Below are positions 1 through 15,340 of a stretch of 32,007 bases of DNA, one piece after another (the stretch's first letter is position 1; the number at the start of each line of letters is the position of its first letter). The position numbers were made by a program, and so were the translations under genes. The notes below the pieces were generated by a model. That model did not search any database. It had not been told where the DNA came from and worked only from the letters and a program-made list of their open reading frames with translations. This DNA is from an uncultured Gammaproteobacteria bacterium (lineage in GTDB: Bacteria > Patescibacteriota > Patescibacteriia > 2-01-FULL-39-33), in NCBI GenBank assembly GCA_964608895.1, contig CAZSPT010000003.1, positions 1 through 32,007 of the forward strand. Reading direction: 5' to 3'.

Positions 1-712
1 CCCCGAAAGGCAACGGCGACTTCGGCTTTTTCCAACCGGCCGCCAAAAGAACGATTGCCACCGCCGCTCCCAGAAGATAAGCGGTAAACAAAGCAATAAT
101 TGCTCCTTTCCAGCCAACCATTAAACCGATTAAGGCGCCCAGCCGGAGATCGCCGCCGCCAATCCAACGCCCTCGGGAAAACAGGAATTGAACTCCGAAA
201 AAACCAAACCCGAGCGCCGCCCCCGCCAGAAGATCCAGCCAGCTCTTTCCCAGCAAAAGATTAAACAAAAAAGCAATTGCCATTGCCGGAAAAGTAATCT
301 TGTCTAAAATCTGATACCATCTAAGGTCATAGACAAAAATCACCGCCAAAATGGAAAGAAAAACCAAATTTCTCAGCCAATACCAGAAAATATTAAAATC
401 AGCCAAAAAAATCTCCGGCGAAGTTTCACCAAGAAGATTATAGGCGCTAAAAACGAACAATCCGCCGGTCGCCAACTCAACCAAAGGATATTGCCAGGAA
501 ATCTTCTTTCGGCAGTAGCGGCAGCGTCCTCTTTGAAGGAAAAAGCTGATTGCCGGAATTAAATCCCGCCAATTAAGATTTTGACCGCAGAAAGAGCATC
601 GCGAACGACTAAAAACAAACTTTTCGCCGGTCCTTAAACGACAAATCACAACATTAAGGAAACTGCCGACAATCATTCCAAGAATAAACAAAAAAAAGTA
701 AAACATAGTCAT
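1..712 (-). CDS. pilD: Prepilin peptidase (peptidase A24, PilD/GspO-like); C-terminus cut by window edge
   Basis: Not in the ORF track because it has no stop in the window. My translation of the minus strand from ATG 712-710 gives MTMFYFFLFILGMIVGSFLNVVICRL, then CSFCGQNL..(21 aa)..CRYCRKKISWQYPLVEL (the CxxC-x21-CxxC block typical of PilD). VYDLRWY and GGGDLRLG match the two catalytic Asp contexts of A24 peptidases. Hydrophobic helices continue to position 1. The ATG lies 2 nt after the stop of the upstream ORF. Confidence 0.8.
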   Translation of the reverse strand, partial: MTMFYFFLFILGMIVGSFLNVVICRLRTGEKFVFSRSRCSFCGQNLNWRDLIPAISFFLQRGRCRYCRKKISWQYPLVELATGGLFVFSAYNLLGETSPEIFLADFNIFWYWLRNLVFLSILAVIFVYDLRWYQILDKITFPAMAIAFLFNLLLGKSWLDLLAGAALGFGFFGVQFLFSRGRWIGGGDLRLGALIGLMVGWKGAIIALFTAYLLGAAVAIVLLAAGWKKPKSPLPFG

Positions 713-714
713 TA

Positions 715-1134
715 TCATTCGCCAGCTAAAACAATCCCCTGCTTGCTCAACTGATAATCGCCTGGCGGCAATCCGGCCGCTCCGGATTCCAAAGAAAAAT
801 AAATCTTAAAATCCTCTCGGGATAAATCTTTAACCAAATATTGAAACCGTCCCTGATTGATCGGATCAATTAATTCCCTAAAATCAAGTCCCGGCGAATC
901 AGGCCGGCCGCAGAAATTTATCAAAGAACCCTTTTGACAGTCCAGAAGCCGATAACTGTTAAATCTAAAAAAATAATCAGTCATTTTGGAGTGAATCACT
1001 TTAATATCGCCGAGACGCTGATAGTCGCGACTTTGGCCGAGATTAAAAAAATGCCACCAAACAACGGCCGTCAAAGCAATGACCGCTAAAATCAAATAAA
1101 TTATCACCTTAACCCGAAAACGAAGAAGTCGCAT
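715..1134 (-). CDS. Single-pass membrane protein with pilin-like globular motifs but no class III (prepilin) signal
   Basis: ORF track, 139 aa. It has an N-terminal hydrophobic helix (VIIYLILAVIALTAVVWW). SRDYQRLGDIKVIHSKM and DPINQGRFQYLV...FKIYFSLE resemble the conserved helix-end and DPxxxxxYxY...LE blocks of GspG/type IV pilin cores. There is no G/FTLIE motif and no Glu5. It is tightly coupled to pilD. Confidence 0.5.
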   Translation of the reverse strand: MRLLRFRVKVIIYLILAVIALTAVVWWHFFNLGQSRDYQRLGDIKVIHSKMTDYFFRFNSYRLLDCQKGSLINFCGRPDSPGLDFRELIDPINQGRFQYLVKDLSREDFKIYFSLESGAAGLPPGDYQLSKQGIVLAGE

Positions 1135-1145
1135 AATTTTTTTTT

Positions 1146-1154
1146 ATTATACCA
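1146..1154 (-). promoter_or_regulatory. Extended -10 element (TGgTATAAT on minus strand) for the 715..1134/pilD unit
   Basis: The plus strand reads attatacca at 1146-1154. Only 11 nt (1135-1145) separate the hexamer from the ATG at 1134, which implies a leaderless or near-leaderless mRNA. I see no good -35. Confidence 0.3.
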
Positions 1155-1164
1155 CAAATCAGGA

Positions 1165-1203
1165 AAAACAAAAACGCCCCTTTTAGAAAAAAGAGGCGTT
1201 TTC
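1165..1203 (-). terminator. Rho-independent terminator after the pilin gene
   Basis: The minus strand reads aaaacgcctctttt-ttct-aaaaggggcgtttt, a roughly 14-bp stem with one G-U pair, followed by tttttgttttt. It lies directly downstream of the pilin stop at 1220. Confidence 0.6.
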
Positions 1204-1219: not shown

Positions 1220-1603
1220 TTATTCACAGGCGGTGCCAGTCGGTCCAGTCGTAACTATTCCGGCAAAACCAGTGGAATCAGCGCAAAAATAACCATCTTC
1301 TTTGCAAAGGTCGCCATAGGCAACAAAACCGGTTGAATCAGAGTTTAGATTATAGTCGGTATCGTCACTGCAACTGGGAGGAGTCAAACTCGGCTCCACA
1401 TCGGTAATCGCTATGCTGGTATAATCACCGTCAGGATGTTCAGCTATTTGCCAATTTCTAAACTGGGTAAGATCGCTTTTAATCTGAGCGTCATAAGCAC
1501 TGTTCCTGGCGTTGGAATAAGAAACAACAGCCACTCCAGCCAAAATTCCAATAATAGCGATTACCACCAAAAGTTCAATTAAAGTAAAACCTTTTCTGTT
1601 CAT
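1220..1603 (-). CDS. Type IV pilin / pseudopilin with canonical prepilin signal
   Basis: [27 protein letters not shown] is a textbook class III leader: G|FTLIE with Glu5, followed by a hydrophobic alpha1-N helix. The 127-aa protein has four Cys in its C-terminal half and a reiterated DSTGF motif. It has its own promoter-like element and a strong terminator. Confidence 0.9.
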
Positions 1604-1755: not shown

Positions 1756-2544
1756 CTATTTTTTTTGTTTGAAAAATCCAGCGGCTCTTTTGGTTATTTT
1801 AGCGAAAAAACCGTTTTGCTTCTCGGTGTTTTTCCCAATCAGCCGGCCAAGCTCCTCTAAAAGAAGGCTGTCTGTTTTCTCCTTAATTCCTAAACCGGCC
1901 GGGATTTGGCGGGCGGCAACCATCGCTCTGATTTCGGCTCTGGCATCTTCCCAAGACCTTTTTTGAAAATAATTGCGTTCAACCAACTGAAAAAGACGAT
2001 TCCGAAGCCGGGTGATATTATTCAAAAGATCTGAACGGATCATTCCGGCAATTACTACCTGATTTTGGGAATTTTCCTTAAACTGATTAAAAATTCCAAT
2101 CAATTGATCAAAATCTTTCGCCCGGCTGATTGCCCGGCGGGCGTATTCCCGGGAATTTTCCCGAAACAGCCGCTTCATTTTTTCTTGAAGCAGTTCTTTC
2201 GCCCGCTGTTTTACTCCTTCGGGCTGGTCGGGAAGCTTAGTGAAAATCCGGGCAAAATTTCGGGCCGGTTCATCTTTTTCCCCGACAATTTCGGAAATAA
2301 TAACCGAATCAATATTTTCTTCTAAAAAATCGTCCAGTTCTTTCAGGCCATTTTTTAACTCTTTAGATTCAGCCGGAAGATTTTCCAAAATCTGCTCAAA
2401 ATCCAAATCAGGATTTTCAACCGGCTGTTCCAACCGGCGACTGGAAGATTCCAAGCGCTCCCGAGCCGATTTTTTTTCAGTTTTCAAAAACTGAGATTTT
2501 CCGATAAACGATTCTTGAGATTGTAATTCCGGAGAAACACCCAT
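1756..2544 (-). CDS. Hypothetical soluble, highly charged helical protein (262 aa) inside the pilus operon
   Basis: The ORF track gives 1756..2643, but its first 33 codons overlap pilC. The in-frame ATG at 2544-2542 (MGVSPELQ...) lies 4 nt after the pilC stop. There is no TM segment or signal peptide and I recognise no motif. Confidence 0.6.
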   Translation of the reverse strand: MGVSPELQSQESFIGKSQFLKTEKKSARERLESSSRRLEQPVENPDLDFEQILENLPAESKELKNGLKELDDFLEENIDSVIISEIVGEKDEPARNFARIFTKLPDQPEGVKQRAKELLQEKMKRLFRENSREYARRAISRAKDFDQLIGIFNQFKENSQNQVVIAGMIRSDLLNNITRLRNRLFQLVERNYFQKRSWEDARAEIRAMVAARQIPAGLGIKEKTDSLLLEELGRLIGKNTEKQNGFFAKITKRAAGFFKQKK

Positions 2545-2548
2545 ATTA

Positions 2549-3760
2549 TTAAAAATTACTTGAAAGCTGCCAAAGAGGCAGAAAGATGGCGGCGACAAAT
2601 CCGCCGACCGCCACTCCCAGAATAACGATAACAATCGGCTCAATCAAAACAGTTAAATTACTCACCTGATTGTCAATTTCTCGGGAGTAAAAATTGGTTA
2701 ATTTCTCCAACACCAACTCCAATTTTCCTGTTTCCTCGCCAACATTTATTATCTGGGAAACCAGCGGCGGAATGTCTTTACTGGCAACCAAACTGTCGGA
2801 AATTGAAGAACCTTCCCTGACTTCTCGAACCGTCTTTTGGAGAACCTCCTCAAAGACTCGGTTGCCAACCACTTTTTCGGCAGTTTCCAAAGCTTTGGCC
2901 GCCGGCACCCCTCCTTGAAACAAAGTGGCGAGATTTCTGGTGATTCTAACCAGATAAATATTCCGGAAAATTGAGCCAATCAAAGGCATCCGAATACTCC
3001 AAAGGTCAAAAATACGCCGGCCGGCTTCGGTTTTTTTAATCGCGACCGTCACTCCGACAACAAGCGCCAAAACCGCCAAAATAACCAACCACCAAAAATT
3101 ATTCAAAAAATTAGATATAGCAATAAGAATTTTGGTCAGTATGGGAAGTTCAGTCCCGGATTTTTCAAGCATCTCGGTCAACTGGGGGATGACAAAAGTA
3201 ATCATAACAAAACCGACTATTAGCAAACCAACAATAATCACCGAAGGATAAATCATGGCGTTCTTAACTTTCGCCCGGAGATCATAATCTTTTTCCTGCT
3301 GGTCGGCAAGATAATTCATTACTTCGCTCAACCGGCCGGAAGTTTCTCCCGAAGCGATGACATTAGTATAGAATTCGCTGAAAACCCGGGGATGGCCGCC
3401 CATCGCCTGGGAAAGCTTGGCTCCCCCATCAACCTCGTCGGCGATTGAAGAAATAACGCTCTTCAAATACTTGTTGCTTGTCTGACGGACGATGATTCTA
3501 AGCGACCTGACCACCGGCATGCTTGATTCCACCATTAAAGCCAGCTGGCGGAAAAAAATCACCAAATCTTTGGTTTTGACTCCGGTCAAAACTTCAATGT
3601 TGAATTTGTCGAAAAACCCTTTAGGTTTTGGAGCGATTGAAACAATCGCTAGTTTCTTGTTTTCTAAAAGTTCGGCAACCGCCTGTTCGTCGGCCGCTTC
3701 AACGACTCCTTCAATTGTTTCTCCGGCTTTGTTTTTCGCTTGATAAGAAAAAAGAGACAT
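2549..3760 (-). CDS. pilC: Type IV pilus platform protein PilC (GspF family)
   Basis: 403 aa. The GspF signature occurs twice (ASGETSGRLSEVM and VGEETGKLELVL), each followed by TM helices. This is the typical two-repeat polytopic architecture. Confidence 0.9.
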   Translation of the reverse strand: MSLFSYQAKNKAGETIEGVVEAADEQAVAELLENKKLAIVSIAPKPKGFFDKFNIEVLTGVKTKDLVIFFRQLALMVESSMPVVRSLRIIVRQTSNKYLKSVISSIADEVDGGAKLSQAMGGHPRVFSEFYTNVIASGETSGRLSEVMNYLADQQEKDYDLRAKVKNAMIYPSVIIVGLLIVGFVMITFVIPQLTEMLEKSGTELPILTKILIAISNFLNNFWWLVILAVLALVVGVTVAIKKTEAGRRIFDLWSIRMPLIGSIFRNIYLVRITRNLATLFQGGVPAAKALETAEKVVGNRVFEEVLQKTVREVREGSSISDSLVASKDIPPLVSQIINVGEETGKLELVLEKLTNFYSREIDNQVSNLTVLIEPIVIVILGVAVGGFVAAIFLPLWQLSSNF

Positions 3761-3766
3761 AAGCTG

Positions 3767-4153
3767 TTATTTCACCATTTTTTTTATTTTTTCAACCACT
3801 TCCGACGGCATAAAATGGGCTTTAATTAAATAATCGTCAGCACCCATTTCCAGACCTTTATCAACGTCGGATTTTTGACTTAAATTTGTTAAAAGAATTA
3901 CCGGAATATCTTGAAATTTCTTGCTCTCTTTTAGTTTTTCCAAAACGTCAAAACCGCTCATCTTCGGCAGGATTAAATCTAAAAGAATCAAATCCGGCTG
4001 CTTTTTTTTGATAATTTCCCAGCCTTTTTCGCCGTCATAAGCGACATAGACTTGAAAATCTTCCAACTCAAATTTCGTCCGGTACAAATCAGCCAAAAAA
4101 ACATCGTCTTCAACTATTAAAGTGGTAATTGTTTTTTGTTTTTTCTTAGCCAT
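3767..4153 (-). CDS. Stand-alone response-regulator receiver domain (CheY-like)
   Basis: The start is trimmed to MAKKKQKTITTLIVEDD (ATG 4153-4151), because the longer ORF would overlap pilB. Receiver motifs are present: acidic pair EDD, phospho-acceptor context LILLDLILPKMSG, LLTNLS, and Lys in DYLIKAH. There is no output domain. Confidence 0.85.
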   Translation of the reverse strand: MAKKKQKTITTLIVEDDVFLADLYRTKFELEDFQVYVAYDGEKGWEIIKKKQPDLILLDLILPKMSGFDVLEKLKESKKFQDIPVILLTNLSQKSDVDKGLEMGADDYLIKAHFMPSEVVEKIKKMVK

Positions 4154-4169: not shown

Positions 4170-5969
4170 CTAAGACAATGGTTTGGAAACCGGCTTTTTA
4201 TCCGGTTTGGCTTCTTCGCCCTGCTGTTCCCTGATTTCTTCGGAAACCCGGACAATCTCTTCAATAGTCGTCACTCCCTGAACGGCCTTCAAAATTCCGT
4301 CTTGGGCAAGCCGAATATAGCCCTGACGATTCATCTGCTCAAGCGCGTCCTGATAGCTGAAATCCTTGGCAATCAGATTTTTGAACCGCTGGTCAATTTC
4401 CAAAACTTCGCTGACGACCGTCCGGCCGATGTAGCCGGTATTTTTACATTTTGAACAGCCTTGGCCGCGGTAGAATTTAAGTTTTCCTTTAAGCTTCTTG
4501 GCGAAATCCGGCGGCATTCTATCTATCTCTCCCTTAACTCTTTCTTCGGCTTTGGGAGAAATTTTGACTTCTTTCCGGCAATCAGGGCAAATTTTTCTAA
4601 CCAGCCGCTGTGCCATCACTAAATTTAAAGTTGAGGAAAGAAGAAACGGCTCAACTTGCATATCAAGGAGCCGGGGAACCGCTCCCCAGGCATTATTAGT
4701 GTGGAGAGTTGAAAAAACAAGATGGCCGGTTAAACCGGCGTGAATCGCCAGCTCGGCGGTTTCATTATCCCGAATTTCTCCAACCATGATAATATTGGGG
4801 TCTTGGCGAAGAATCGCCCGAAGACCCGAGGCAAAAGTATAGCCGATTTCCGGATTTATCTGGGACTGATTAACTCCTTCAATATAATATTCAATCGGAT
4901 CTTCCAAAGTGGTAATATTATTATCCTGGGCGTTAAGCATATTAAGAACGGAATAAAGGGTGGTAGTCTTTCCGGCTCCGGTCGGCCCGGTCAAAAGAAA
5001 CAGTCCGAACGGCTTTTTAATGTTGCGATCAATAATTTCAATGTGGTGGTCAAGGAAGCCGAGTTCGGCCAGAGTCGGCACTCCGGCCGAAGTGTCCAAA
5101 ACCCGCATAACCACTTTTTCATAATCCAAAGTCGGCAAAACCGAGACCCGCAAATCAATCTGGTGGTCGCCGACATTAGCCCGAATCCGGCCGTCTTGAG
5201 GCAACCGGGTTTCATCAAGCTTCAAATTGGCCAGCACTTTAATCCGAGAAACAACCGCGTTATAGAGATTGGGCGGCAGTGAAAGCGAAGAATGAAGAAT
5301 ACCGTCAACTCGGTAGCGAACTCGGCCGCCGCTCCGGCCGGGTTCAATATGGATATCAGAAGCTCCTCCTTCCAAAGCGTGCTTAATAATCACTGAAACT
5401 ATTTTTGCCACCGGAGCACTCTTAATCGCCGCCGTCAAATCTTTTTTACCCTGATTTTCAAGAACTTTTTCTTTTTCAGAAAACTTTACTTTGGCTGACT
5501 CCAAAGCGGTTCCGATTTCCTCTTTAAAACCCTGATAGCGCCGGGAAACTCGCTGAAAATCCCTTAAAGAAATGGCGAAAAATTCCGGCCTTAGGCCTTG
5601 TTGAGTCGCTAAAAACTCAATCGCTTCCCGAGCCTGAAAATTTCCGGGATTAACCAAGCCGGCCTTAAGCGCTCCTTCTTTTCGCTCAAAAACAACCATC
5701 TGATAGTTTTTAGCGACTTTCTGGCTCAGAGTGTTTAAAACCTCCGGAGAAATTTCCCGCTGGGATAAATCAGCCTTTTTCAGCTTGAAAATATCGGCTT
5801 TTGCCTGGGTTAATTTTTCTTCGGAAATCGCTTCTTCAGCCAGAAGAACTTCTTCCAAACTTTTACCGCTTTTAGATGTTTTGGCTTCGGCGGCGGTTAG
5901 AACTTTGGCGTCAATCAGCTTATTCTTTTTGAGAAAATCGTTTAATTTCCGATCAAGATTATTGACCAT
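4170..5969 (-). CDS. pilB: Type IV pilus assembly ATPase PilB (GspE family)
   Basis: 599 aa with an N-terminal GspE_N-like region. Motifs: Walker A GPTGAGKTTT, Walker B IIMVGEIRD, His box GHLVFSTLHTN, and the tetracysteine motif CPDC...CSKCKNTGY. Confidence 0.92.
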   Translation of the reverse strand: MVNNLDRKLNDFLKKNKLIDAKVLTAAEAKTSKSGKSLEEVLLAEEAISEEKLTQAKADIFKLKKADLSQREISPEVLNTLSQKVAKNYQMVVFERKEGALKAGLVNPGNFQAREAIEFLATQQGLRPEFFAISLRDFQRVSRRYQGFKEEIGTALESAKVKFSEKEKVLENQGKKDLTAAIKSAPVAKIVSVIIKHALEGGASDIHIEPGRSGGRVRYRVDGILHSSLSLPPNLYNAVVSRIKVLANLKLDETRLPQDGRIRANVGDHQIDLRVSVLPTLDYEKVVMRVLDTSAGVPTLAELGFLDHHIEIIDRNIKKPFGLFLLTGPTGAGKTTTLYSVLNMLNAQDNNITTLEDPIEYYIEGVNQSQINPEIGYTFASGLRAILRQDPNIIMVGEIRDNETAELAIHAGLTGHLVFSTLHTNNAWGAVPRLLDMQVEPFLLSSTLNLVMAQRLVRKICPDCRKEVKISPKAEERVKGEIDRMPPDFAKKLKGKLKFYRGQGCSKCKNTGYIGRTVVSEVLEIDQRFKNLIAKDFSYQDALEQMNRQGYIRLAQDGILKAVQGVTTIEEIVRVSEEIREQQGEEAKPDKKPVSKPLS

Positions 5970-5980: not shown

Positions 5981-6265
5981 TTACTTAGGAGTAAAAGGAT
6001 TGCCTCGGCCGGGGCTTAAGGAAACCGCCTTAAGCGGCCATTCTCCGTACTGCTCAAATTCTTCATTAAGCCGGGAAATAATTTCGGCCCGCAAAGCAAT
6101 AATCCGCCGGCCGGCCTCCGGAAAAAACGACTCAAGGTTAGAATTTTCCAAATTGTCAGCCGACTGACTAATTGAATAAACACTGTAGCCGGCCGTCGCC
6201 AAAGCGACCACCGCCACTAAAGCAAGGATTAAATACTGGACTAATTGTTTTTTCTTGGCCGTCAT
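5981..6265 (-). CDS. Small single-pass membrane protein, possibly PilP-like
   Basis: The start is trimmed to MTAKKKQLVQYLILALVAVVALATAG (ATG 6265-6263, 1 nt after the pilO stop). It has an N-terminal TM helix and a C-terminal GRGNPFTPK that resembles the (D/N)PF motif of PilP-type proteins. Its position after pilO fits. Confidence 0.4.
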   Translation of the reverse strand: MTAKKKQLVQYLILALVAVVALATAGYSVYSISQSADNLENSNLESFFPEAGRRIIALRAEIISRLNEEFEQYGEWPLKAVSLSPGRGNPFTPK

Positions 6266-6266: not shown

Positions 6267-6884
6267 CTATATTTTTGGATAATAATAAGTAGTAATTTCA
6301 AACTGGGAATTAGGTTCGGTTAACCCCAGCAAGAGTGAATTAACGTCAAAAAGCATAATACTTGATTCTAAGCCACCGAGCAGGCGCTTGAGCTGGGGAT
6401 AGCCGTCAGCAACCACTTTAGCTGAAATTTTAACCTTATTGATTCCGGAAATTTTGGGGCTAAAGCTTTCTTCGCCGGCTCGCTTTCTAACCGCTTCGGC
6501 CGGCTTGATTTCCAAACCGCTCAACTGACACCCATGGTTTTTGACCAACTGGCTGATTTGAATAATAATCGCCGGAACATCAAGTTTGGGCGGCAGAGCG
6601 AGATTAAGCAGACGAGCTTCGCTTTCAGAAAAATTTACCGGCGGCTCCTTGGCTAATTCAATCCGGCGCTCCTCCAGCCGAGCTAATTCCTTGTCCAGAC
6701 CATCCGTCTGCTGCTTAAGGGAGAATAAATTTTGAAACGGAGATTCCAAAATTAAAAAATAACCACCGGCCAAAAGTAAAACTCCAAGAAATCCGGACAA
6801 AAGAATCAAATAACGATTCAAAAAACCAGCAGTCAGTTTTTTGGTCTTGGTTTTTTCTTTTTTCGGTTGTTCTTGGTTAGTCAT
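6267..6884 (-). CDS. pilO: PilO-like pilus alignment protein
   Basis: 205 aa: a short basic N-terminus, one TM helix (YLILLSGFLGVLLLAGGYFLI), a coiled-coil segment (DGLDKELARLEERRIELAK) and then an alpha/beta domain. The call rests on gene order pilM-pilN-pilO. The sequence itself is weakly diagnostic. Confidence 0.6.
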   Translation of the reverse strand: MTNQEQPKKEKTKTKKLTAGFLNRYLILLSGFLGVLLLAGGYFLILESPFQNLFSLKQQTDGLDKELARLEERRIELAKEPPVNFSESEARLLNLALPPKLDVPAIIIQISQLVKNHGCQLSGLEIKPAEAVRKRAGEESFSPKISGINKVKISAKVVADGYPQLKRLLGGLESSIMLFDVNSLLLGLTEPNSQFEITTYYYPKI

Positions 6885-6897: not shown

Positions 6898-8451
6898 TTA
6901 ATCTAATTTTTTGAAAACTTCAGGGGCGATCTTCAAATTTAAATCGCAGGAAACTCCGGCAACTCCCCCACCGGGTTCGGAAACCAGGCTGATATTATCA
7001 ACCGAAACTTCTTTGACAAAATTATTTGATTGCTCAAAAGCGACAATTTGCCGCGCCAAAATTCCGTAATTGATCGCTTCAGTCGGCAAAACAAACTCTC
7101 CCGACAAATCAGCCGAGAATGACTTGTAATGAACTCCGTCTAAAGTGTATTTTTCCAAAAGCTCAAAAAAATCGGTCCAATAAACATGCTCTTTCCAAAG
7201 CTGGTCTATTTTTTCAACTTTTTTCCGGAGATAGCGGTTCTCTCGCCAATAATCCTCCCGCGGCCGGAGCTCTTGCTTCAATTCTCGGATTTTTTGATTT
7301 TGAACGGCAATTTTTTCCTGCTCGCTCTGACAAGCCAAAACAATCAACCAATAACAGCCAGCGATAACAACAGCCGGCAGAACCACCGCCAACACCAAAG
7401 CGAACACTTTTGTCCGGCGGCCGGGATGTTTAACCGATCCAAGCTCTTCAGGCATCAAATTAACCTCAAAATTACCTTTCTGCCGCTGGGGAGCAAGATG
7501 GTACTTTGATTTATTTTTTTTGTTGTCTTCCTGTTTTTGGTCCATTTGTTTTTGTTTTTGATTTTCTTTTTCCTTTTTTTTAAGCTGTCTTTTTCTTTCT
7601 TTTTCAGCTTGTTTTCTTCGCTCAGCTTCTTCTTTTTCCTGCCGCTTTCGTTCTTTTGCGGCTTGTTTTTCTTGTCTTTTTCTTTCTTTTTCAGCTTGTT
7701 TTCTTCGCTCGGTCTCTTCTTTTTCCTGCCGCTTTCGTTCTTTTGCGGCTTGTTTTTTCCGGCGCTTTTGCTCCTGCTCAGCCTGTTTTCTTTGAGCCGC
7801 CTCCTCTTGCTCTCTTTGTTTCCTGATTTCGGCCCGGCGCCGTTCAATTATTTTTTCCCGGCGATCCGGCTTATCGGCCGAGGGCTGAACCGACGGTGGA
7901 GCAGCTTTAAGCGGCACCAATTTCGGCTTAGCCGGCCGGGAAGCTCCGCCCATCCTCCAACGGCTGGATAATTTATTCCAAAAACTCTTCCAAAACGATT
8001 TTCGCGGCGGCCGGAAAGAAGTTTCCGGCTTAACCGGCTTAAATTCCGGAGAAGGCCGCCGGCTTGGCGGCCGGGATTTTTCTTCCAAATTTTTTATCGG
8101 CGACCGTGGCCGGCCGACCACGCTTTGCCAGCCGGATTTCTTCGGCCGCTGCTCCTTCGGCGGCTGACGATAAGAAATTTTTTGCCGCCGAGCCGACTTT
8201 AAAATATTCTGACTGGGCGTCTTGACCGGTTTAGGAACAACTGGCTCAATCTTCGGCTTTTTGGAAGGAAATTTTTTAAATAATTTATCCCAAAAAGATG
8301 GTTTTGACTTGGCTGAAATTTTTTCCGGCGAACGCTGCCGAGCCGGCTGGGAAAGTCCTATTTCAATCTTTTGGGACTTTCTCGCCCGCCTTTTCCGAAG
8401 TTTTTCTTCTTTTCGGCGGAGATCTTCCGGCAGTAAATTTATTTCAGCCAT
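6898..8451 (-). CDS. pilN: PilN-like protein with a very long charged cytoplasmic extension
   Basis: The N-terminus MAEINLLPEDLRRK matches the PilN INLLP motif. A second copy, FEVNLMPEELGSVK, sits just before the single TM helix (VFALVLAVVLPAVVIAGCYWLIVLA, about residues 349-373). A C-terminal periplasmic domain of about 145 aa follows. Between the two motifs lie about 320 residues rich in Pro/Lys/Arg and then in Glu/Arg/Lys. Confidence 0.7.
   Translation of the reverse strand: MAEINLLPEDLRRKEEKLRKRRARKSQKIEIGLSQPARQRSPEKISAKSKPSFWDKLFKKFPSKKPKIEPVVPKPVKTPSQNILKSARRQKISYRQPPKEQRPKKSGWQSVVGRPRSPIKNLEEKSRPPSRRPSPEFKPVKPETSFRPPRKSFWKSFWNKLSSRWRMGGASRPAKPKLVPLKAAPPSVQPSADKPDRREKIIERRRAEIRKQREQEEAAQRKQAEQEQKRRKKQAAKERKRQEKEETERRKQAEKERKRQEKQAAKERKRQEKEEAERRKQAEKERKRQLKKKEKENQKQKQMDQKQEDNKKNKSKYHLAPQRQKGNFEVNLMPEELGSVKHPGRRTKVFALVLAVVLPAVVIAGCYWLIVLACQSEQEKIAVQNQKIRELKQELRPREDYWRENRYLRKKVEKIDQLWKEHVYWTDFFELLEKYTLDGVHYKSFSADLSGEFVLPTEAINYGILARQIVAFEQSNNFVKEVSVDNISLVSEPGGGVAGVSCDLNLKIAPEVFKKLD
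7587..7760. repeat. Tandem 87-bp duplication (2 units, about 94% identical) inside pilN
   Basis: Units 7587-7673 and 7674-7760 both begin gtctttttctttctttttcagcttg. Each encodes 29 aa of the KQAAKERKRQEKEE(T/A)ERRKQAEKERKRQE repeat. More degenerate copies flank them. Confidence 0.85.
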
Positions 8452-8456: not shown

Positions 8457-9575
8457 TTATTCTATATTTCTCATCGCCAAACCAATCGCAACCGCGAACC
8501 TCGCTCCCAGACGATCAAGAATCGGCTTTAATTCAGTCGGATAAACTACTCGAGCCCAGGGATCACCGAGATGAACATTTAAATCAAACCGCTTAGACAA
8601 GTAGCCGGAAAGATTTCCCAAAAGGCTTGCTCCACCAGTCAAAATTATTTTTTCAACTTTTTTGCCGCTCTGTTGTTGATAAAGATTTAAAGTATATTTA
8701 ATTTCATTAATTGTCGTTTCCAAAGATTTTTCAACCACTTTGGGTAAAGAACTTTCGGCTCCTTCCTTGCCCAAAGCCAAATCCTGCTTAAACTGTTCGG
8801 CCCGCTCCATATTAACGTTAAGATTCTCGGAAATACTCCGGCTGACCATAAAGCCGCCGGCTTTAATACTCCGATTCATTAGAGGAATTCCTTTTTCAAC
8901 CACTGAAACACTTGAAGTGGAGGCTCCGAGGTCAACCACCATCACTATTGATTTGTCATTGCCGACTAAAGAGCGGATAAGAGCGAAATTTTCAGTTTCT
9001 AAACTTAGTAAATCAAGACCGCTCTCTTTAAAAATTCCAATGTATTTCTGAACCAAAACCTTGCTTGAGCCCGTCAAGAGGATTTTGAGATTTTTCTTTG
9101 GCTTGGAAAAAATCTTTTTCAAAGAATTGACCTGCTGGGAAATTTCACTTGCTTGAAATTCTTCCGGCCGCTCTTTATTAATCGGCAGTTCGCCAACAAC
9201 CTTCCAATCAAGAATCAGCTCCTCCAGCGGCATTGGAATAATTTTCTTCGCTTCCCAAGTAATTGCCGAGGCAAGCTCCTTTTTCGGCATTTCCGGCAAG
9301 GTAATAACCGAAGTAAAAACCGAAAAATTTGAAATGGCGGCAATTGCCTTACGGGAGGAAATCCGAGATTTCCGGCAGACGCTTTCAATCACTTCAGCGG
9401 TCTCTTTAACTTCGCCGAGCCGGCCGTCTCCGTTCCAGCGAGTCGGATCTTTTTCAGTAAAACCATAGGTAACCAACTTTGGCCGGCCTTTAAAATTTTC
9501 CAACTCAACCACTTTGACCGAAGAGGTCCCGATGTCAATTCCTAAAAAACTTTTGTCAGAGGAAAATAGTCCCAT
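8457..9575 (-). CDS. pilM: Type IV pilus assembly protein PilM (actin-like ATPase fold)
   Basis: 372 aa. Motifs: FLGIDIGTSSVKVVEL (phosphate-1), VVDLGASTSSVSVV and IILTGGASLLGNL. It lies directly upstream of pilN. Confidence 0.9.
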   Translation of the reverse strand: MGLFSSDKSFLGIDIGTSSVKVVELENFKGRPKLVTYGFTEKDPTRWNGDGRLGEVKETAEVIESVCRKSRISSRKAIAAISNFSVFTSVITLPEMPKKELASAITWEAKKIIPMPLEELILDWKVVGELPINKERPEEFQASEISQQVNSLKKIFSKPKKNLKILLTGSSKVLVQKYIGIFKESGLDLLSLETENFALIRSLVGNDKSIVMVVDLGASTSSVSVVEKGIPLMNRSIKAGGFMVSRSISENLNVNMERAEQFKQDLALGKEGAESSLPKVVEKSLETTINEIKYTLNLYQQQSGKKVEKIILTGGASLLGNLSGYLSKRFDLNVHLGDPWARVVYPTELKPILDRLGARFAVAIGLAMRNIE

Positions 9576-9589
9576 ATTTTAAATTAAAA

Positions 9590-11425
9590 TCAAAAACTTC
9601 TGATAACCGGAAGGCCTTCAACAAATCCTCCCAGTCCCGGCGGCGGGTTGGCCGCCAACCGGCCGTCGTAGATAATCCTTTCCGAGCCCTGGCTTGGAGA
9701 AGTGTAAGTTCGGCGGAAGTCAAAGGCGTGGGCGATAACCACTCCTTTGGCGGTAAGCGGGTAGTTTGAAAATCCGGAAAAAAAGACTCCGCAACCGTTT
9801 GTCTGATACTCAGGGTATTCAGGATCGGAACCGGCTGTTTCCTGGCAAGAATTGCCGTTTCCCAAAAGAATAAAAGCGCCGACAATATCTTTAACATCCG
9901 GAGCGACAACAATATCTCCTTTGACTATCCAAGCGACCGAAGGCAGTTGATTTAATTCAGCCGGAAAAGCCCCGCTTTCATAATCAAAATCCCGATTAAG
10001 ATACAAATCTCCTTCAACGACAATCAGACCATTGCCGTAGCCGCCAAGCGGACCAATACCGAATTCATCCAAATTATTTATAGTCAAATCCCCGGCAGTA
10101 TGATAATAGACTTTGTCGCCCGGTCTAACTGTTCCGACAAATTCATCCGCCAAATCTCCGGCGATAATCTCTTGGCCGTATTTGTTATAATTTCTGCCAT
10201 TGGCAGTTTGGTAGACGGTGGTCAAACCGGCCAAATCAATCCGGCCCAAAGCGTTCCGATAAACTCTGCCGGCTCCCTCTTCTAAATAACCGAGCTCAAC
10301 ATCCTTAATCACTCCCTGCTGGCAATTGCTTGAAGAAACATTCTGGATGTCGTCGGCAAAAATACAGTAGCTGGCGTTCGCTCCCCCGCTCCCGGCCTTT
10401 TGCCGAATCTCTTTGCCGCTGTAAATACTGCCGAACTGGGTTTCCAACCAAGGCAAAACCACTAAAGCTCCTCCTGACAAAGGATTTAAATGGAGCCAGC
10501 CGGCGCCGGTCAGGCCGCTGGCGGTTCCGTCCCAAGCCCAGCCGACAATTTCACCGCTTTTCCAGTCAACATTGGTTCCGTAGAGCTCGCAGCTCGGACA
10601 ACTGTCGCATTCAATCCGAAAACTGCCGTCAATCGCGGCGACTTTCTGACAACCGGTGCAACAGTTTGAACAGCAGGTCGCTCCGGTACAAGCGGGGTCG
10701 GGTTCAGAATTGCCGCGGCCGCTGCCGGTGCAGACAAATTCGCTTCCCCGGTAAACCGGATCGTCGCCCGCCACTCCCGAAGGATGCTGACAATCAAGGT
10801 CGCAATTTGAGCCGGGTTCATAATTTCCCGAAGGCAGTCCTTCGCAAAAACAAGTATTACTAAAGCAAGTGAGGCAGTTTTCAAACTCGGTTTCGGAAAA
10901 ATCCAGACAGGGATCGCTGTCAACACAAACTTCTTCCCCTTGAGGAGTCGTCTGGCAGTTCTGGGTCCAAGCAAGACATTTTTTTTCACAGTCATAGCAT
11001 TGGTAGCCGGCCTGACCGCCGACTGAACCGCCCCGGCGGAAATGAATCCAACCGTCTTCCCCCAAAGAAACCACTTGGGCATAACCTTCAATTTTTCCGG
11101 AATTTCCATCCAAGCTGGCGGTTCGGCCGACCGTCGCTCCAAAACCGATCCAACCAAGATTGCTTGACCAGCCATAGCCGCTAAGATTGTTATTGGAATC
11201 AACTTGGACGCTGTAGTAATTAGAGCAGGTATCAACAGTGCAACTCGGCTGAGTATTGGCGATATTCAAAGAAATCCAACCGTAATTCTCCGACCAAGCC
11301 CAACCGCTTAAAGGATATTCTCCGGCTTGAGCACTTGTTTCTTGAAAATGAAAAACTAAAACAAAGACCGCCGCTAAAATAATCAGGGCTGATGAAAAGA
11401 ACAATATTTTCAAAAACTTAAGCAT
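9590..11425 (-). CDS. Secreted Cys-dense protein with Trp-rich GWAWS..GWI repeats (611 aa), function unknown
   Basis: It has a Sec-type signal (MLKFLKILFFSSALIILAAVFVLVF...TSAQA). Repeats: LSGWAWSENYGWISLN, LSGYGWSSNLGWIGFG, EDGWIHFR and IVGWAWDG...GAGWLHLN. The central core is extremely Cys-rich (CYDCEKKC, CLTCFSNTCFC, CCSNCCTGC, CDSCPSC). The C-terminal third is Cys-poor. Its stop is 14 nt before the pilM ATG. Confidence 0.75.
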   Translation of the reverse strand: MLKFLKILFFSSALIILAAVFVLVFHFQETSAQAGEYPLSGWAWSENYGWISLNIANTQPSCTVDTCSNYYSVQVDSNNNLSGYGWSSNLGWIGFGATVGRTASLDGNSGKIEGYAQVVSLGEDGWIHFRRGGSVGGQAGYQCYDCEKKCLAWTQNCQTTPQGEEVCVDSDPCLDFSETEFENCLTCFSNTCFCEGLPSGNYEPGSNCDLDCQHPSGVAGDDPVYRGSEFVCTGSGRGNSEPDPACTGATCCSNCCTGCQKVAAIDGSFRIECDSCPSCELYGTNVDWKSGEIVGWAWDGTASGLTGAGWLHLNPLSGGALVVLPWLETQFGSIYSGKEIRQKAGSGGANASYCIFADDIQNVSSSNCQQGVIKDVELGYLEEGAGRVYRNALGRIDLAGLTTVYQTANGRNYNKYGQEIIAGDLADEFVGTVRPGDKVYYHTAGDLTINNLDEFGIGPLGGYGNGLIVVEGDLYLNRDFDYESGAFPAELNQLPSVAWIVKGDIVVAPDVKDIVGAFILLGNGNSCQETAGSDPEYPEYQTNGCGVFFSGFSNYPLTAKGVVIAHAFDFRRTYTSPSQGSERIIYDGRLAANPPPGLGGFVEGLPVIRSF

Positions 11426-11452
11426 AATAATTTTTCAAAAAAATCAACTTTC

Positions 11453-14400
11453 TTATTGGGAAGCAACCTTTAAGCATCTGAAATGAGCATAGCCATCATT
11501 TCCAAACCATCCATTGGTCACCCTGACTTCCCATTCCCGGCTGCCGTATAAGGTTTCAGCGTTGTCATCATTCAACGCAGAGGTGACCGGAGCAGAATAT
11601 ATTGTCTTGTACTTATCCTCCCAGTTAGACGACCCGACTCCGCCGCCAATAGCAACATATCCTTCCGGACAGCGGACTCTAAGCATATTAGAGCCCCATT
11701 TGCTCGGTATGCATTCCGATTCCGGATAAAGACATCCATCTTGAGCACAAGTGCAAGTAATAACTCCCAGAGAAAGATTATTAGTGATTTCTTGATTAAG
11801 GGAACCAAGACAATTTCCAGAACCATCGCAGACTTCTCCATCGGCGGAAATATCCCCTCCAACATTAAGATTGCCAGCGCTGTCAATGGTCATCTTGGTC
11901 GTCTCTTGACCATTTGTGGATCCGGGAGAAAAAACTATATCCCCATATTCCCTAAACTCCATTTTATTTTCATCTCGCCTAAACAAAATACGGTGATTGT
12001 TATCAAGACTCCTAATCTGGCCGTTGTCGGCAAAAAATATCTCTTGGCCAGAATTAAGATTAAAATCCCCTCTAACTTTCAAATTATCAGTCAACTCAAA
12101 GCGGGATTCACTATTATCCCAAAAAAGCTGCTTGCCAGTTCCCAGGGTTCCAAAAACAAGATTAATATCATCATCGGTAGGATCTTTATCCTGGCCGATA
12201 AGGGTTAGTTGGCCGTAACCGGTCAATTTTGCCTTAGAATTGCTACTGGGCACTCCGCCAATACCGACATTGCCGTTGCTGTAATAAATTCCGTCACTAT
12301 GCTCCTCCCAAAATCCGCCGCCACTGGCGCCGGCAATATCTGAAAGACAATTTCCAGAACCATCGCAGACTTCTCCTCCGGCAGAAATATTTCCATCCAA
12401 CATTAAGTTTCCATCAATTTTAACATAATCTTCAACTGATAAATCAATAATCGTTTGATCATCATGATGAGAAACTAAGTAATTAGTCTTAAGACTATTA
12501 GTGGCCTCAAAGTTAGTGGCCTCAAAGTTAGTGGCCTTGACCGAACCGCTGTAGTAAATTCCCTGACTGTCCTCCTCCCAAAATCCGGTTAACTCTTCAA
12601 CTGGATAACAGTTAGTGCCGTCCTGATTGCAATAATTTGAAGCTTGGATATTTCCGGAAACATAGAGATCGTTTGAAAACTTAAAATAATTATTAGCGGA
12701 AGACCAAAACAGCTGTTGCCAATTATTATTGTAATCCCCAAAAATAAGATGAATGTCCTGATTGGTCGTTTGACTGCCTTGGCCGATCCTTAAATTTCCC
12801 AAGTTATCAATAACCAGCCGATTTGCCTGAGAGTAATTTTTTTCTTTCCAAAATCTTAATTCATCAGTGCCTTGGTCGTGATAAATTGCCCAATGGTTGG
12901 TGCCGTCAAGAAAGCCGCCGCTCTGAATGTCAATCTCGGCGTTTCCGCTTTCTTGATAAACATGAATATTGGCGTTTGGACTAGCAGTGCCGATTCCGAC
13001 CTGACCGCTTCTTTTAGCGGCAAAAAAAGGATTAGTTTTGTTTCCTTCATAAAGGACAAAATCACTGTATTCGCTGTAGATTTCGCCATCATGCTCAACC
13101 ACCAGCCGATCCCGGCCGCCGGCTGACTGAACACTGAAAAGAGGGGCGCCGGAATAGGGATTGGATTCCGGCCGAATCGCGACGCCGGTTGAATAGTTGG
13201 AAGCGTCTTGTTCGTTGATAGAATATTTGTTGCCGCTCGGGTCTAAAACATGAACTTCGCCTTCGTAAATGATTTGGTCAGCTCCATCCTGCTCCCAAAA
13301 TCCGCCGCCACTGGCGCCGGCAATATCTGAAAGACAATTTTTAAAACCATCGCAGACTTCTCCTCCAACATCAAGATTGCCAGCATAAATTTCAAAATTT
13401 CCGGATGAATCAAATCTTGCTCTCTCCACATTATTGGTGAATATCCCCAGCTGGTCGTCTCCTTGCTGCTGAAAGCCGGTATCATTGTCTCCAATCGCCA
13501 ATTGGAGCGCCGGGTCATCAACGGCGTGTGTGCTACCGGCAGTGAGGGATTTTCCAATACCGACATTGCCGTAGTCACTATCTTTAATAGTAAAAACATC
13601 GCTAAAACCGTTTCGCCTGATAACGAAATTTTCGCTGTCATTTTTTCCAGAATACCATTTTTCATTACTGCCTGACTTAATAACAGTGCCGACATATTCG
13701 CCCTCTGCTCCTTTGATAGTAATTATATCTCCCTGGTCAGAGCCGTTGCCAACAGTTAAACCGGAGGTTCTCGCCTGAAAAAAAGAATTAGTTTTGTTTC
13801 CTCCGTAAAGGACAAAATCACTGTATTCGCTGTAAACTTCGCCGGCGTGCTCAACCACCAGCCGATCTCGGCCGCCGGCTGACTGAACACTGAAAAGAGG
13901 GTCGCCGGAATCGGGATTGGATTCCGGCCGAATCGCGACGCCGGTTGAATAGTTGGAAGCGTCTTGTTCGTTGATAGAATATTTGTTGCCGCTCGGGTCT
14001 AAAACATGAACTTCGCCTTCGTAAATGATTTGGTCAACTCCATCCTGATCCCAAAATCCGGCTGCGCCGCCGCCGGCGCCACCGGCACCAACATTTGAAA
14101 GACAATTGCCGTTAAAACACGCGTCAGATGAAAATTCAAATTGTTCATCAACATTATTCCAAGATAAGGTTTGATCATCTTCATTAACAGCGCTATTACT
14201 GAATATTAAAGATTTATTTCCTTCTCTTTCTTTTCCAATTTCCAAATCCCTTCCTCCAACTGATAATTTTCCCGACCCTGAAAGTAAATCAGTCGTGCCA
14301 ATACCGACATTGCCGTCAGTATCAATTTTCATCATAACGGTTCCGGGAGTTTCAAGCCCAGGCTGGGTAAAAATCCTGAAATCATTATGATTTGGATGCT

Positions 14401-15340
14401 TGTCAATAAGCCAAATTAAATTATTTTCCGGATCTTTTTCATCTCCCAATATTATGCGAGGCTGGGAGCCGTTAATTAAAAGTTTATCAACAACATGCAA
14501 ATCAACTTTAGGATCAGTCGTGCCAATTCCGACATTGCCGTCAGTATCAATTCTCATTCCTTCAATAAAGCCACCTACTCCATCACCATGAATAAATGAC
14601 AATGAATTTCGACTTGAAGCTTGATCACCTCGATTTGAAATATGCCAAGTCTTATTATTATCACTGTCAGAAAGAATTAAACGGCCGGCATGTTGAACGT
14701 CTAAACCGCTTGAATCAACTATTAAATTTCCGTAAAAACTGGCGTCGCCGTCAGGATTAATTGTGAAAGTTTTTAAATAATTTTCATTATTGTCTTTCCG
14801 CCAAATTTCAAAATTATGATTATTATCCTTGCGGTGATACAACCCCCAATTCCAACTGTCTCCCTGGAGTAAAACTCCGGAATATTGATATATATCTCCG
14901 TCACCGCTAAGATTTAAAAAAGCAGCATTATTTCCAGTTCGCGGTCCAATATAGACATTTCCCTGGCTATAACCAATACCGTCATTACGCAATTTCCAAT
15001 ATCCACTCTTTGAATCACTACACTCCCAATGGCCGACGTCGTGATAAGTCAAAATCTCTCCTTCATTGCATTCCATAATGCTTAAAAAAACTTTCTCTTT
15101 ATTGTCACTCCAGTTGCCAAAAATTTCGCCATCAAATTGGGTATCTTGGTTTAAAGGCGGGGCAATATTTCCTTGAGGTGGCGGCGAAGAAGGCTCTTGC
15201 CAAGCAGCTGAAGCAAAATTAAAACCAGCCCCGAAGAACAGTCCGAAAATCACTGCCAGGCTGGTCAAAATCTTTAATTTTAGCCAAAATAAACCAAAAT
15301 TAAGGGATGGTTTTTTACCCTGTCTGCCACCTTCCGTCAT
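11453..15340 (-). CDS. Giant secreted/surface protein (1295 aa) with phage-tail-fibre-like reiterated modules
   Basis: Signal or anchor LKILTSLAVIFGLFFGAGFNFASA is followed by AWQEPSSPPPQGNIAPPLN. DTDGNVGIGTTD occurs twice. A (G)GEVCDG(S/F)(G/K)NCL..GGFWE module occurs three times, plus one degenerate copy (CFNGNCLSNVG..AGFWD). Two units of about 100 aa are nearly identical. The C-terminal domain of about 110 aa contains Cys (CPEGYVAIGGG...FRCLK). Its stop is 27 nt before the next gene. Confidence 0.8.
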   Translation of the reverse strand: MTEGGRQGKKPSLNFGLFWLKLKILTSLAVIFGLFFGAGFNFASAAWQEPSSPPPQGNIAPPLNQDTQFDGEIFGNWSDNKEKVFLSIMECNEGEILTYHDVGHWECSDSKSGYWKLRNDGIGYSQGNVYIGPRTGNNAAFLNLSGDGDIYQYSGVLLQGDSWNWGLYHRKDNNHNFEIWRKDNNENYLKTFTINPDGDASFYGNLIVDSSGLDVQHAGRLILSDSDNNKTWHISNRGDQASSRNSLSFIHGDGVGGFIEGMRIDTDGNVGIGTTDPKVDLHVVDKLLINGSQPRIILGDEKDPENNLIWLIDKHPNHNDFRIFTQPGLETPGTVMMKIDTDGNVGIGTTDLLSGSGKLSVGGRDLEIGKEREGNKSLIFSNSAVNEDDQTLSWNNVDEQFEFSSDACFNGNCLSNVGAGGAGGGAAGFWDQDGVDQIIYEGEVHVLDPSGNKYSINEQDASNYSTGVAIRPESNPDSGDPLFSVQSAGGRDRLVVEHAGEVYSEYSDFVLYGGNKTNSFFQARTSGLTVGNGSDQGDIITIKGAEGEYVGTVIKSGSNEKWYSGKNDSENFVIRRNGFSDVFTIKDSDYGNVGIGKSLTAGSTHAVDDPALQLAIGDNDTGFQQQGDDQLGIFTNNVERARFDSSGNFEIYAGNLDVGGEVCDGFKNCLSDIAGASGGGFWEQDGADQIIYEGEVHVLDPSGNKYSINEQDASNYSTGVAIRPESNPYSGAPLFSVQSAGGRDRLVVEHDGEIYSEYSDFVLYEGNKTNPFFAAKRSGQVGIGTASPNANIHVYQESGNAEIDIQSGGFLDGTNHWAIYHDQGTDELRFWKEKNYSQANRLVIDNLGNLRIGQGSQTTNQDIHLIFGDYNNNWQQLFWSSANNYFKFSNDLYVSGNIQASNYCNQDGTNCYPVEELTGFWEEDSQGIYYSGSVKATNFEATNFEATNSLKTNYLVSHHDDQTIIDLSVEDYVKIDGNLMLDGNISAGGEVCDGSGNCLSDIAGASGGGFWEEHSDGIYYSNGNVGIGGVPSSNSKAKLTGYGQLTLIGQDKDPTDDDINLVFGTLGTGKQLFWDNSESRFELTDNLKVRGDFNLNSGQEIFFADNGQIRSLDNNHRILFRRDENKMEFREYGDIVFSPGSTNGQETTKMTIDSAGNLNVGGDISADGEVCDGSGNCLGSLNQEITNNLSLGVITCTCAQDGCLYPESECIPSKWGSNMLRVRCPEGYVAIGGGVGSSNWEDKYKTIYSAPVTSALNDDNAETLYGSREWEVRVTNGWFGNDGYAHFRCLKVASQ
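12307..12379. repeat. Dispersed intragenic repeat (73 bp), copy 1, encoding the GEVCDG.GNCLSDIAGASGGGFWE module
   Basis: cccaaaatccgccgccactggcgccggcaatatctgaaagacaatttccagaaccatcgcagacttctcctcc recurs at 13294-13366 with 3 mismatches. A partial 36-bp copy lies at 11808-11843. Confidence 0.85.
12499..12538. repeat. 15-bp tandem repeat (about 2.6 units) encoding ATNFEATNFEATN
   Basis: tagtggcctcaaagt occurs twice, followed by a partial third unit. It is in frame within the giant gene. Confidence 0.8.
13031..13304. repeat. 274-bp intragenic direct repeat, copy B
   Basis: It aligns without gaps to 13787-14060 (offset 756 bp = 252 codons). I count about 12 mismatches by eye, and the central stretch of about 120 bp is identical. 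It encodes FWEQDGADQIIYEGEVHVLDPSGNKYSINEQDASNYSTGVAIRPESNP... Confidence 0.9.
13294..13366. repeat. Dispersed intragenic repeat (73 bp), copy 2
   Basis: Same string as 12307-12379, except tttttaaaacc replaces tttccagaacc. Confidence 0.85.
13787..14060. repeat. 274-bp intragenic direct repeat, copy A
   Basis: Partner of 13031-13304. It encodes FWDQDGVDQIIYEGEVHVLDPSGNKYSINEQDASNYSTGVAIRPESNP... Confidence 0.9.

Follow-up and report, generated by a model that had tools for sequence, protein, structure and literature searches.

What are two genes for very large secreted proteins doing at the head of a type IV pilus gene block? The question is raised by contig CAZSPT010000003.1 (assembly GCA_964608895.1) from an uncultured bacterium; the window that we analyzed is this entire 32,007-bp contig, with a G+C content of about 43%. 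From position 15340 to position 1 it holds 13 open reading frames (ORFs) on the minus strand, recovered from the ORF list and Pfam searches, which begin with a 1295-aa fiber-like protein and a 611-aa cysteine-rich protein and continue with the pilus genes from pilM to pilD. The account that we favor, with confidence somewhat above even, is that the block is an ordinary type IVa pilus operon of a monoderm-like bacterium of the Candidate Phyla Radiation (CPR), from a Buchananbacteria-like lineage within the Falkow-/Komeili-/Uhr-/Kerfeldbacteria group, and that its two leading genes encode a host-recognition fiber and a conserved surface partner made together with the pilus. The leading pair probably links the recognition of host cells to the pilus machine. 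A layout with no secretin is ordinary and is no discovery; the new part is the two leading genes. These genes, and the pilus gene that follows them, are:

11453..15340, minus strand: predicted 1295-aa mosaic fiber protein (PHROG and PDB-sequence matches; repeats)
14921..15205, minus strand: conserved mature N-terminal module of the fiber, aa 46-140 (exhaustive phmmer search)
9590..11425, minus strand: 611-aa secreted cysteine-rich protein, 'CYS611' (parts defined by sequence, alignment and model)
8457..9575, minus strand: PilM, actin-like ATPase-fold pilus alignment protein (Pfam PilM_2, E 1.2e-42)

The genomic context of its relatives ties the 611-aa gene to the pilus. We found 41 homologues of the protein, all in Patescibacteria-type metagenome-assembled genomes; the nearest named ones belong to Buchananbacteria, followed by Falkow-, Komeili-, Uhr- and Kerfeldbacteria, lineages that we take to form part of the GTDB class ABY1. 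A scan of GTDB species genomes (one genome per species, seeded solely with the 611-aa family) extended the family to at least 510 relatives. Forty-nine loci were evaluable, meaning that they carry the C-terminal domain of the family and enough downstream DNA, and in 46 of these pilM lies no more than 800 nt downstream of that domain, with a median gap of 113 nt. This linkage spans several candidate phyla and two upstream contexts: class 1, with divergent LemA-M48-ClpB genes as in this window, and class 2, with LepA-RecJ-RNase H. Over its full length the 611-aa protein is about 40% identical to its class-1 relatives, compared with 45% for the pilin and 49% for PilD, and many Gly, Trp and Cys residues are invariant across the family. 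By these results, the 611-aa protein acts like a constant part of the pilus locus and not like a variable adhesin. The first-pass annotation of this DNA had proposed a role as adhesin or cargo for both large proteins, and for this one such conservation fits a machine-associated component better.

The sequence of the 611-aa protein can be divided into several parts. A signal or anchor helix (aa 2-28) is followed by a conserved A-x-A-like site (AQA) and by a GW-repeat domain (aa 35-135). The protein contains four GWxWSxNxGWIxF hairpin motifs of about 15 aa, spaced 30-40 aa apart, the fourth of which comes after a Cys-rich insert (aa 136-285) that varies in length among homologues. It had been described as Cys-dense, a description borne out by its 28 cysteines, 22 of which fall within aa 143-279. 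A conserved linker (aa 323-395; PWLETxYGSIY...NATYCIFA), disordered in the AlphaFold prediction, leads to the C-terminal region (aa 396-611), which consists of a beta-solenoid, predicted with confidence for aa 400-570, and a conserved tail with the motif GSERIIYDGRLxANPPPGL...LPxIRDF. We found no match for this protein in a Pfam, NCBIfam, PHROGs or PDB profile search, and Foldseek returned nothing significant for its model in PDB or BFVD. Likenesses to ice-binding proteins (DUF3494) and to fucose-lectin propellers fell below any threshold and were not used. The hairpins do not correspond to the Listeria-type GW module, an SH3-like domain of about 80 aa (PF13457), for which Pfam gave no match in the protein. 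A scan for the family in the viral contigs of IMG/VR yielded no relative.

The N-terminal GW domain alone is much more widespread in Patescibacteria, where it occurs in proteins of 250-1600 aa. Genes encoding it often lie within 5 kb of pil genes and adjoin those for PilD, PilB, PilM or pilins (loci L053, L054, L056, L067, L073, L079 and L080). Three Uhrbacteria-type loci (L031, L035 and L060) encode a second GW-repeat protein of 511-550 aa, located 4-5 kb upstream of the pilM-linked gene with the C-terminal domain and directly after RNase H. These genomes are GC-rich, gene models between the two genes are unclear, and the entire stretch may encode one very long protein.

The 1295-aa protein presents a different pattern. 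It starts with a Sec signal peptide (aa 1-45) that ends in ASA, with AW as the first mature residues. The mature N-terminal module, hereafter the N-module (aa 46-140), begins with WQEPSSPPPQGNIAPPLN; directly after the ASA site comes AWQEPSSPPPQGNIAPPLN, and then a small beta domain with two cysteines. Its signature is W-x-E-P...PP...N...P-L-N plus about 90 aa. When the first 140 aa were used in a word-indexed homologue search, nothing was found; an exhaustive phmmer search of 1.84 billion representatives retrieved 31 others with this module, always at the N-terminus and in proteins of 127-1752 aa. We compared the protein segment by segment with about 130 related proteins using BLAST: the N-module was present in 36 of them, and a duplicated insert of 100 aa and the C-terminal tip in none. 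The N-module is the only part of the fiber that is conserved among relatives. The tip (aa 1166-1295) is unique and Cys-rich, and the insert is encoded by two 300-nt copies of 94% identity (13022-13321 and 13778-14077).

Outside the N-module, the resemblance of the protein to others is limited to its repeats. Pfam and NCBIfam gave no match, and full-length homologue searches returned matches that cover just 5-10% of the protein. The shared parts are GNVGIGT-type repeats found in very large tail-fiber-like proteins, some of which carry an S74 domain; Pfam detected no S74 domain (PF13884) in this protein. A PHROG tail-fiber family matches aa 776-861 (E 7.6e-10), and the sole match among 177,635 PDB sequences is the MAT fiber Bd2133 of Bdellovibrio bacteriovorus (E 3e-4), aligned over the repeat MRIDTxGNxGIGTxxPxxxLHV. 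In a low-confidence model of the first 250 aa, the top Foldseek matches were Bd2133 and T4 gp34, neither of them significant. The label 'tail-fiber-like' that the protein had received holds for these repeats. Cysteines occur in C-x5-6-C pairs at the module junctions. Taken together, this composition indicates that the protein is a mosaic, fast-evolving fiber. The roles of the two proteins differ from the first-pass reading: the 1295-aa protein appears to be a variable adhesin of the MAT or tail-fiber kind, and the 611-aa protein a conserved component of the locus.

Several repeats of 40-106 nt lie at module junctions of the fiber gene, and a perfect tandem of 15 nt x 2.7 (12498-12537) encodes ATNFEATNFEATN. 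Together with the 300-nt duplication, which is recent, they could serve as substrates for shuffling of the fiber by recombination. We rejected a prophage origin of the gene, as the surroundings offer no phage context; tblastn of the fiber against 50,697 phage genomes gave no match. A class III signal of the pilin type was likewise discarded for both large proteins, which present AxA-type sites and no G/FxxxE motif (the slash marks the cleavage site). Both proteins carry paired cysteines, and a DsbA-like oxidoreductase gene lies 6 kb away from the block.

The MAT fibers of Bdellovibrio offer the closest comparison. In these fibers a signal peptide precedes an N-domain of about 130 aa that does not vary within the family; a trimeric beta-helical shaft follows, and the C-terminal tips can be swapped. 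The fibers function in prey recognition; their surface anchor has not been identified, and a possible link to type IV pili was raised as speculation (PMC10769870). Bd2133 (PDB 8ond) has the same layout as the 1295-aa fiber, with homologous repeats, and the absence of an S74 domain recalls the MAT NS74 subgroup. Bdellovibrio and the organism studied here are alike in being bacteria that live on other bacteria. The present fiber differs in its unique tip and in the position of its gene, which lies inside a pilus operon beside a dedicated, conserved partner gene. Trimer formation and glycan binding are putative for the present fiber. The long tail fibers of phages (T4 gp34, T5 pb1-type, PHROG 18345) share the repeat motif and the modular design, in which the N-terminus is fixed to a conserved partner and the distal C-terminus varies, but the 1295-aa fiber has no phage context and carries a Sec signal peptide.

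The two genes recur together. The N-module motif was detected once per locus in 13 distinct class-1 loci, in none of the class-2 loci and in none of the reversed-sequence controls. Where present, the N-module gene invariably comes directly behind the divergent promoter region, and the order of class-1 loci is N-module gene, zero to two more large secreted proteins, the 611-aa homologue and pilM. Five N-module proteins had been retrieved without bias for pil genes, and four of these (P0060, P0064, P0066 and P0067; not P0082) head the same locus. The expectation that homologues of the large genes would stay beside pilM in relatives was borne out for both, by the 46 of 49 loci with the C-terminal domain and by these 13 loci with the N-module, which supports an association of both large genes with the pilus. 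With a looser motif, N-module genes were also found to adjoin genes encoding only the GW-repeat domain in distant CPR loci that lack pil genes (L062, L065 with a gap of 13 nt, L077 and L083); L077 contains two alternating pairs. Because such pairs also recur without pil genes, the two leading genes represent a recurring cassette, which is joined to the pilus operon in this clade and is undescribed. In two of these loci (L077, 9637-17018; L083, 7868-11182), genes for small single-transmembrane proteins of 95-120 aa alternate with the pairs, and these proteins recall the small transmembrane proteins of the pilus locus.

We then consider how the two genes are joined to the rest of the block. With first-ATG starts, the gaps between successive genes are, in gene order, 27, 14, 5, 13, 1, 11, 16, 6 and 4 nt; around the pilin gene they reach 152 and 85 nt, and a 4-nt overlap follows. 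The first-pass annotation had reported 13 co-directional genes with gaps of 1-27 nt except near the pilin gene, as well as the absence of a terminator-like hairpin from the 27-nt and 14-nt junctions; the ORF coordinates confirm the former, and a consensus scan confirms the latter. The two junctions (11426-11452 and 9576-9589) are short and AT-rich, and the scan found no terminator-like site in either. All promoter and terminator sites reported here are consensus matches only:

15486..15515, minus strand: promoter-like site TTGTTA-18-TATAAT with TG, in the divergent intergenic region between lemA and the fiber gene
1749-1720, minus strand: promoter-like site ahead of the pilin gene
1204-1169, minus strand: strong terminator with a 16-bp stem, right after the pilin gene

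An opposing promoter-like site on the plus strand (15430-15458) faces lemA. This arrangement suggests that the two large genes would be co-transcribed with the pilus genes.

We propose the following mechanism. The fiber and the 611-aa protein would be produced along with the pilus machine, under the promoter region that lemA shares. On the outer face of the membrane and cell wall, the 611-aa protein would be located at or beside the PilM-N-O complex, and its GW domain would bind the conserved N-module of the fiber. The variable tip of the fiber would thereby be displayed beside the pilus for the recognition of, and attachment to, host cells, with the pilus supplying reach or tethering. The 611-aa protein is genetically locked to pilM, and its C-terminal beta-solenoid domain is an extra one that the GW-repeat protein has in this clade. 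A more general version, which we regard as possible though rather improbable, would have N-module fibers and GW-repeat proteins form a display system found throughout Patescibacteria, the GW protein being a dedicated receptor or assembly partner and the C-terminal domain gained in the Buchanan-, Falkow- and Uhrbacteria group plugging it into PilM-N-O, so that swappable host-recognition fibers stand at the base of the pilus.

Another role for the 611-aa protein has to be weighed against this account. It could be a pilus-tip or priming adhesin of the PilY1/PilX2 type, exported by Sec, loaded on a tip of minor pilins and carried out by the growing pilus. Such proteins, PilY1 of Pseudomonas and Myxococcus and PilX2 of Nanosynbacter lyticus TM7x, are likewise large, extracellular, beta-rich and tied to type IV pili, with a Sec-type or non-canonical signal. 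The 611-aa protein shares the large size, secretion and beta-rich character of these proteins, and its gene is strictly linked to the pilus locus. Saccharibacteria provide a precedent in PilX2, a candidate adhesin of the type IV pilus that combines a beta-propeller with a non-canonical signal peptide (PMC12206443). GW-repeat N-domain proteins also adjoin pilins or PilD in the Saccharibacteria-type loci L054, L056 and L073, and the Foldseek matches of the 611-aa model to propeller lectins, weak and non-significant, point in the same direction. Yet the protein has neither a PilY1 match in Pfam nor a structural match, PilY1 or propeller, and it combines a Cys-rich insert with a beta-solenoid C-terminal domain. 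Its gene adjoins pilM, when the minor pilins of relatives lie at the opposite end, after pilD, and the protein is conserved like a machine part and not like a host-binding tip. We consider this explanation unlikely. Alternatively, oligomers of the protein might make up a collar or conduit that crosses the peptidoglycan and S-layer and takes over the function of PilP and PilQ. Like pilP and pilQ of diderms, its gene adjoins pilM-N-O, and it has been conserved together with these genes; the protein is extracytoplasmic and disulfide-rich; and several of its conserved segments, namely aa 324-393 and the C-terminal tail, are unfolded in the monomer model, which could reflect the need for a partner. 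Against this, Pfam, PDB profile and Foldseek searches found no similarity to secretins or PilP, nothing supports the formation of a ring, the cassettes of GW-repeat and N-module genes outside pilus loci are left unexplained, and no such collar is known for the functional type IV pili of Clostridia and streptococci. A collar therefore seems very unlikely.

The remaining explanations concern both large genes. They could be ordinary CPR surface proteins that merely neighbor the pilus operon, with independent transcription and function. CPR genomes commonly encode giant surface proteins with a presumed role in host attachment (PMC8080830), the body of the fiber is hypervariable, the fiber gene is absent from most loci of the 611-aa family, and cassettes of the two genes exist away from pil genes. 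Mere proximity is hard to reconcile with the adjacency to pilM described above, which holds across candidate phyla and both upstream contexts, with intergenic gaps of 4-60 nt free of terminator-like sites, and with the consistent placement of the N-module gene between the divergent promoter region and the 611-aa gene; we judge this explanation quite unlikely. Finally, the two proteins could be cargo released through the pilus machine as substrates of pilus-dependent secretion. Some type IV pilus systems do export soluble proteins, and here the shared locus is the sole support for such a role. Both large proteins carry ordinary signals of the Sec/SPase I type, and an envelope without an outer membrane needs no further export step, which makes cargo the most improbable of these explanations.

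Several observations weigh against the favored account of a fiber and its surface partner. About three quarters of the loci of the 611-aa family have no fiber gene in the flanks that were sampled; therefore the 611-aa protein must have a role in the pilus machine that is independent of the fiber. The evidence for the cassette away from pilus genes comes from four loci and a regular-expression motif, and the N-module is likened to the N-domain of MAT fibers by layout, any homology between the two being putative. The two structure models are of moderate to low confidence (pLDDT 69 and 64; pTM 0.45 and 0.31) and have no significant fold match. The sequence itself was found only in two DNA runs from microbial mats, at a depth of about 3x. 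The sole RNA run that we found shares just the conserved N-terminus of the pilin (90-95% identity) and is uninformative on this organism. Lastly, since the window lacks pilT, a mechanism based on retraction is not to be assumed.

The significance of the two genes lies in the biology of the group. CPR bacteria represent a large share of bacterial diversity, and their cultivated members are found attached to other microbes. The sole attachment apparatus shown to matter in CPR bacteria is the type IV pilus, and the determinants of host choice are largely unknown. The 611-aa family, which lacks annotation and whose link to pilM extends over hundreds of species, could supply a missing extracellular part to a pilus machine that operates without an outer membrane, and the 1295-aa mosaic fiber is a candidate determinant of host choice that resembles the prey-recognition fibers of Bdellovibrio. 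If the display system outlined above were confirmed, it would provide both the missing anchor of MAT-type fibers and a new core part of monoderm-type pilus machines.

The remainder of the block encodes the pilus machine itself and one orphan gene:

6898..8451, minus strand: 517-aa bitopic protein in the PilN position (position, single transmembrane segment, synteny), with a long K/E/R-rich cytoplasmic extension
6267..6884, minus strand: 205-aa bitopic protein in the PilO position (position and synteny only)
5981..6265, minus strand: small single-transmembrane protein of about 94 aa in the PilP position, conserved in relatives, with no family match in Pfam or NCBIfam
4170..5969, minus strand: PilB extension ATPase (Pfam T2SSE, E 1.9e-124; N-terminal MshEN, E 2e-9)
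3767..4153, minus strand: stand-alone CheY-like receiver (Pfam Response_reg, E 6e-25)
2549..3760, minus strand: PilC platform protein (Pfam T2SSF in two stretches, E 2e-60)
1756..2544, minus strand: orphan ORF of 262 aa, charged and helical, without signal peptide, unique to this contig
1220..1603, minus strand: major pilin with the class III signal MNRKG/FTLIELL (Pfam N_methyl, E 5e-10; TIGR02532)
715..1134, minus strand: conserved pilin-like protein of 139 aa, with an N-terminal hydrophobic helix and without the G/FxxxE cleavage motif
1..718, minus strand: PilD prepilin peptidase, cut by the contig end (Pfam A24_N_bact, E 3e-32; Peptidase_A24, E 4e-14)

PilB, PilC, PilM, PilD and a pilin with a class III signal, recognized by Pfam or NCBIfam, identify the system as a type IVa pilus. 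Among the names given in the first pass, pilM, pilB, pilC, pilD and the pilin are supported by Pfam; pilN, pilO and 'pilP-like' have no profile support, and we use these three labels only on the basis of position, membrane topology and conserved synteny. The proteins in the PilN and PilO positions have no match above threshold in Pfam, NCBIfam or PDB sequences; for the former, NCBIfam gave a weak match to the Amuc_1101 PilM-like family (E 0.002). The C-terminal part of the PilN-position protein is retained in synteny among relatives. The protein is about 100 aa longer than its counterparts, and the surplus corresponds to the K/E/R-rich cytoplasmic stretch. This stretch contains a tandem duplication of 87 nt (96% identity; repeats at 7586-7792), seen as a strong AT-skew anomaly.

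The receiver is the most conserved protein of the locus: it is 73% identical to relatives, whereas PilB and PilM reach 60%. It retains the acidic pocket, the phospho-acceptor Asp, and the Thr and Lys residues, and the contig encodes no kinase. The orphan ORF has no family match in Pfam, NCBIfam or PHROG and no tblastn match in 83 related loci, where its place between pilC and the pilin gene is a spacer of 150-330 nt. The consensus scan placed a promoter-like site just upstream of it (2573-2545). We examined whether the orphan ORF could be a decayed pilT and ruled this out, as it has no Walker A motif. The 139-aa pilin-like protein, which carries a segment (SRDYQRLGDIK) resembling CPR pilins, may be an uncleaved pilin derivative retained in the membrane. 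Contigs of the source metagenome (runs X1 and X2) seem to skip 1639 nt (1594->3234) and 689 nt (6868->7558) of the window. We rejected these skips as deletions: the matching sides are just 23 nt long, and the skips probably reflect cross-matches with related strains.

The first-pass annotation had presented the locus as secretin-less and not canonical, with neither pilQ nor pilT nor minor pilins in the window. Domain searches of the ORFs of the 32-kb contig confirmed these absences: no ORF matched a Secretin domain (C-domain or N0/N1), no second T2SSE ATPase was found, and there was no further gene with an N_methyl domain or class III signal. In CPR bacteria, the genes for PilB, PilT, PilC, PilM, PilN, PilO, PilD and pilins are clustered, PilQ is absent and the envelope is Gram-positive-like (PMC6744442, PMC7143001). 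Publications thus describe the lack of PilQ as the norm in CPR bacteria, and a secretin is neither needed nor expected here; the layout is unusual only relative to Proteobacteria, and the same gene order is standard in the organism's own clade.

The absence of pilT sets the locus apart from its closest relatives, which encode a PilT of 355-358 aa between the receiver and PilC (L001, L002, L005, L007, L011-L016 and L085). The corresponding junction in this window measures only 6 nt (3761-3766), so that pilT is absent from this locus. L027 and loci of the Falkow- and Uhrbacteria type also have no pilT at this place, and the gene may be encoded elsewhere in this genome. As for minor pilins, eight relatives have at least two pilin-like genes (170-210 aa, with GFTL[IV]E signals) directly after pilD. 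Judging from these loci, the minor pilins of this organism very probably lie just past the contig edge, beyond pilD. Their presence just outside the window had been named among the findings that would make the locus ordinary, and they are probably there.

The block can also be compared with published CPR systems. The secretin-less type IVa pili of CPR bacteria and Patescibacteria (Meheust et al. 2019, PMC6744442) and the T4P-1 and T4P-2 systems of Saccharibacteria (PMC12206443) have the same clustered core of PilM, N, O, PilB, PilC, PilD and pilin and no PilQ. Likewise, a DsbA/MdbA-like oxidoreductase is encoded near CPR loci of this kind, and a role in host attachment is expected for them. 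The published descriptions mention neither a protein of about 600 aa upstream of pilM nor a fiber gene at the head of the operon. Relative to the type IVa loci of its closest relatives, this contig lacks pilT and has the orphan gene between pilC and the pilin gene.

The rest of the contig presents a few further features. On the plus strand, the region 21619-23953 contains a DsbA/thioredoxin-like gene followed by two overlapping paralogues with T4SS_pilin (TrbC/VirB2-like) domains, a second and unrelated type of pilin. In the region 29475-31922, an N4/N6 DNA methyltransferase was called as an ORF with a GTG start that overlaps a tRNA-Ser (29475-29564); because of this overlap, the real start of the methyltransferase must lie further downstream. 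Together with the MutH/Sau3AI-like endonuclease gene that follows, the methyltransferase likely forms a restriction-modification pair. A transposase of the IS1595 family is located at the end of the contig.

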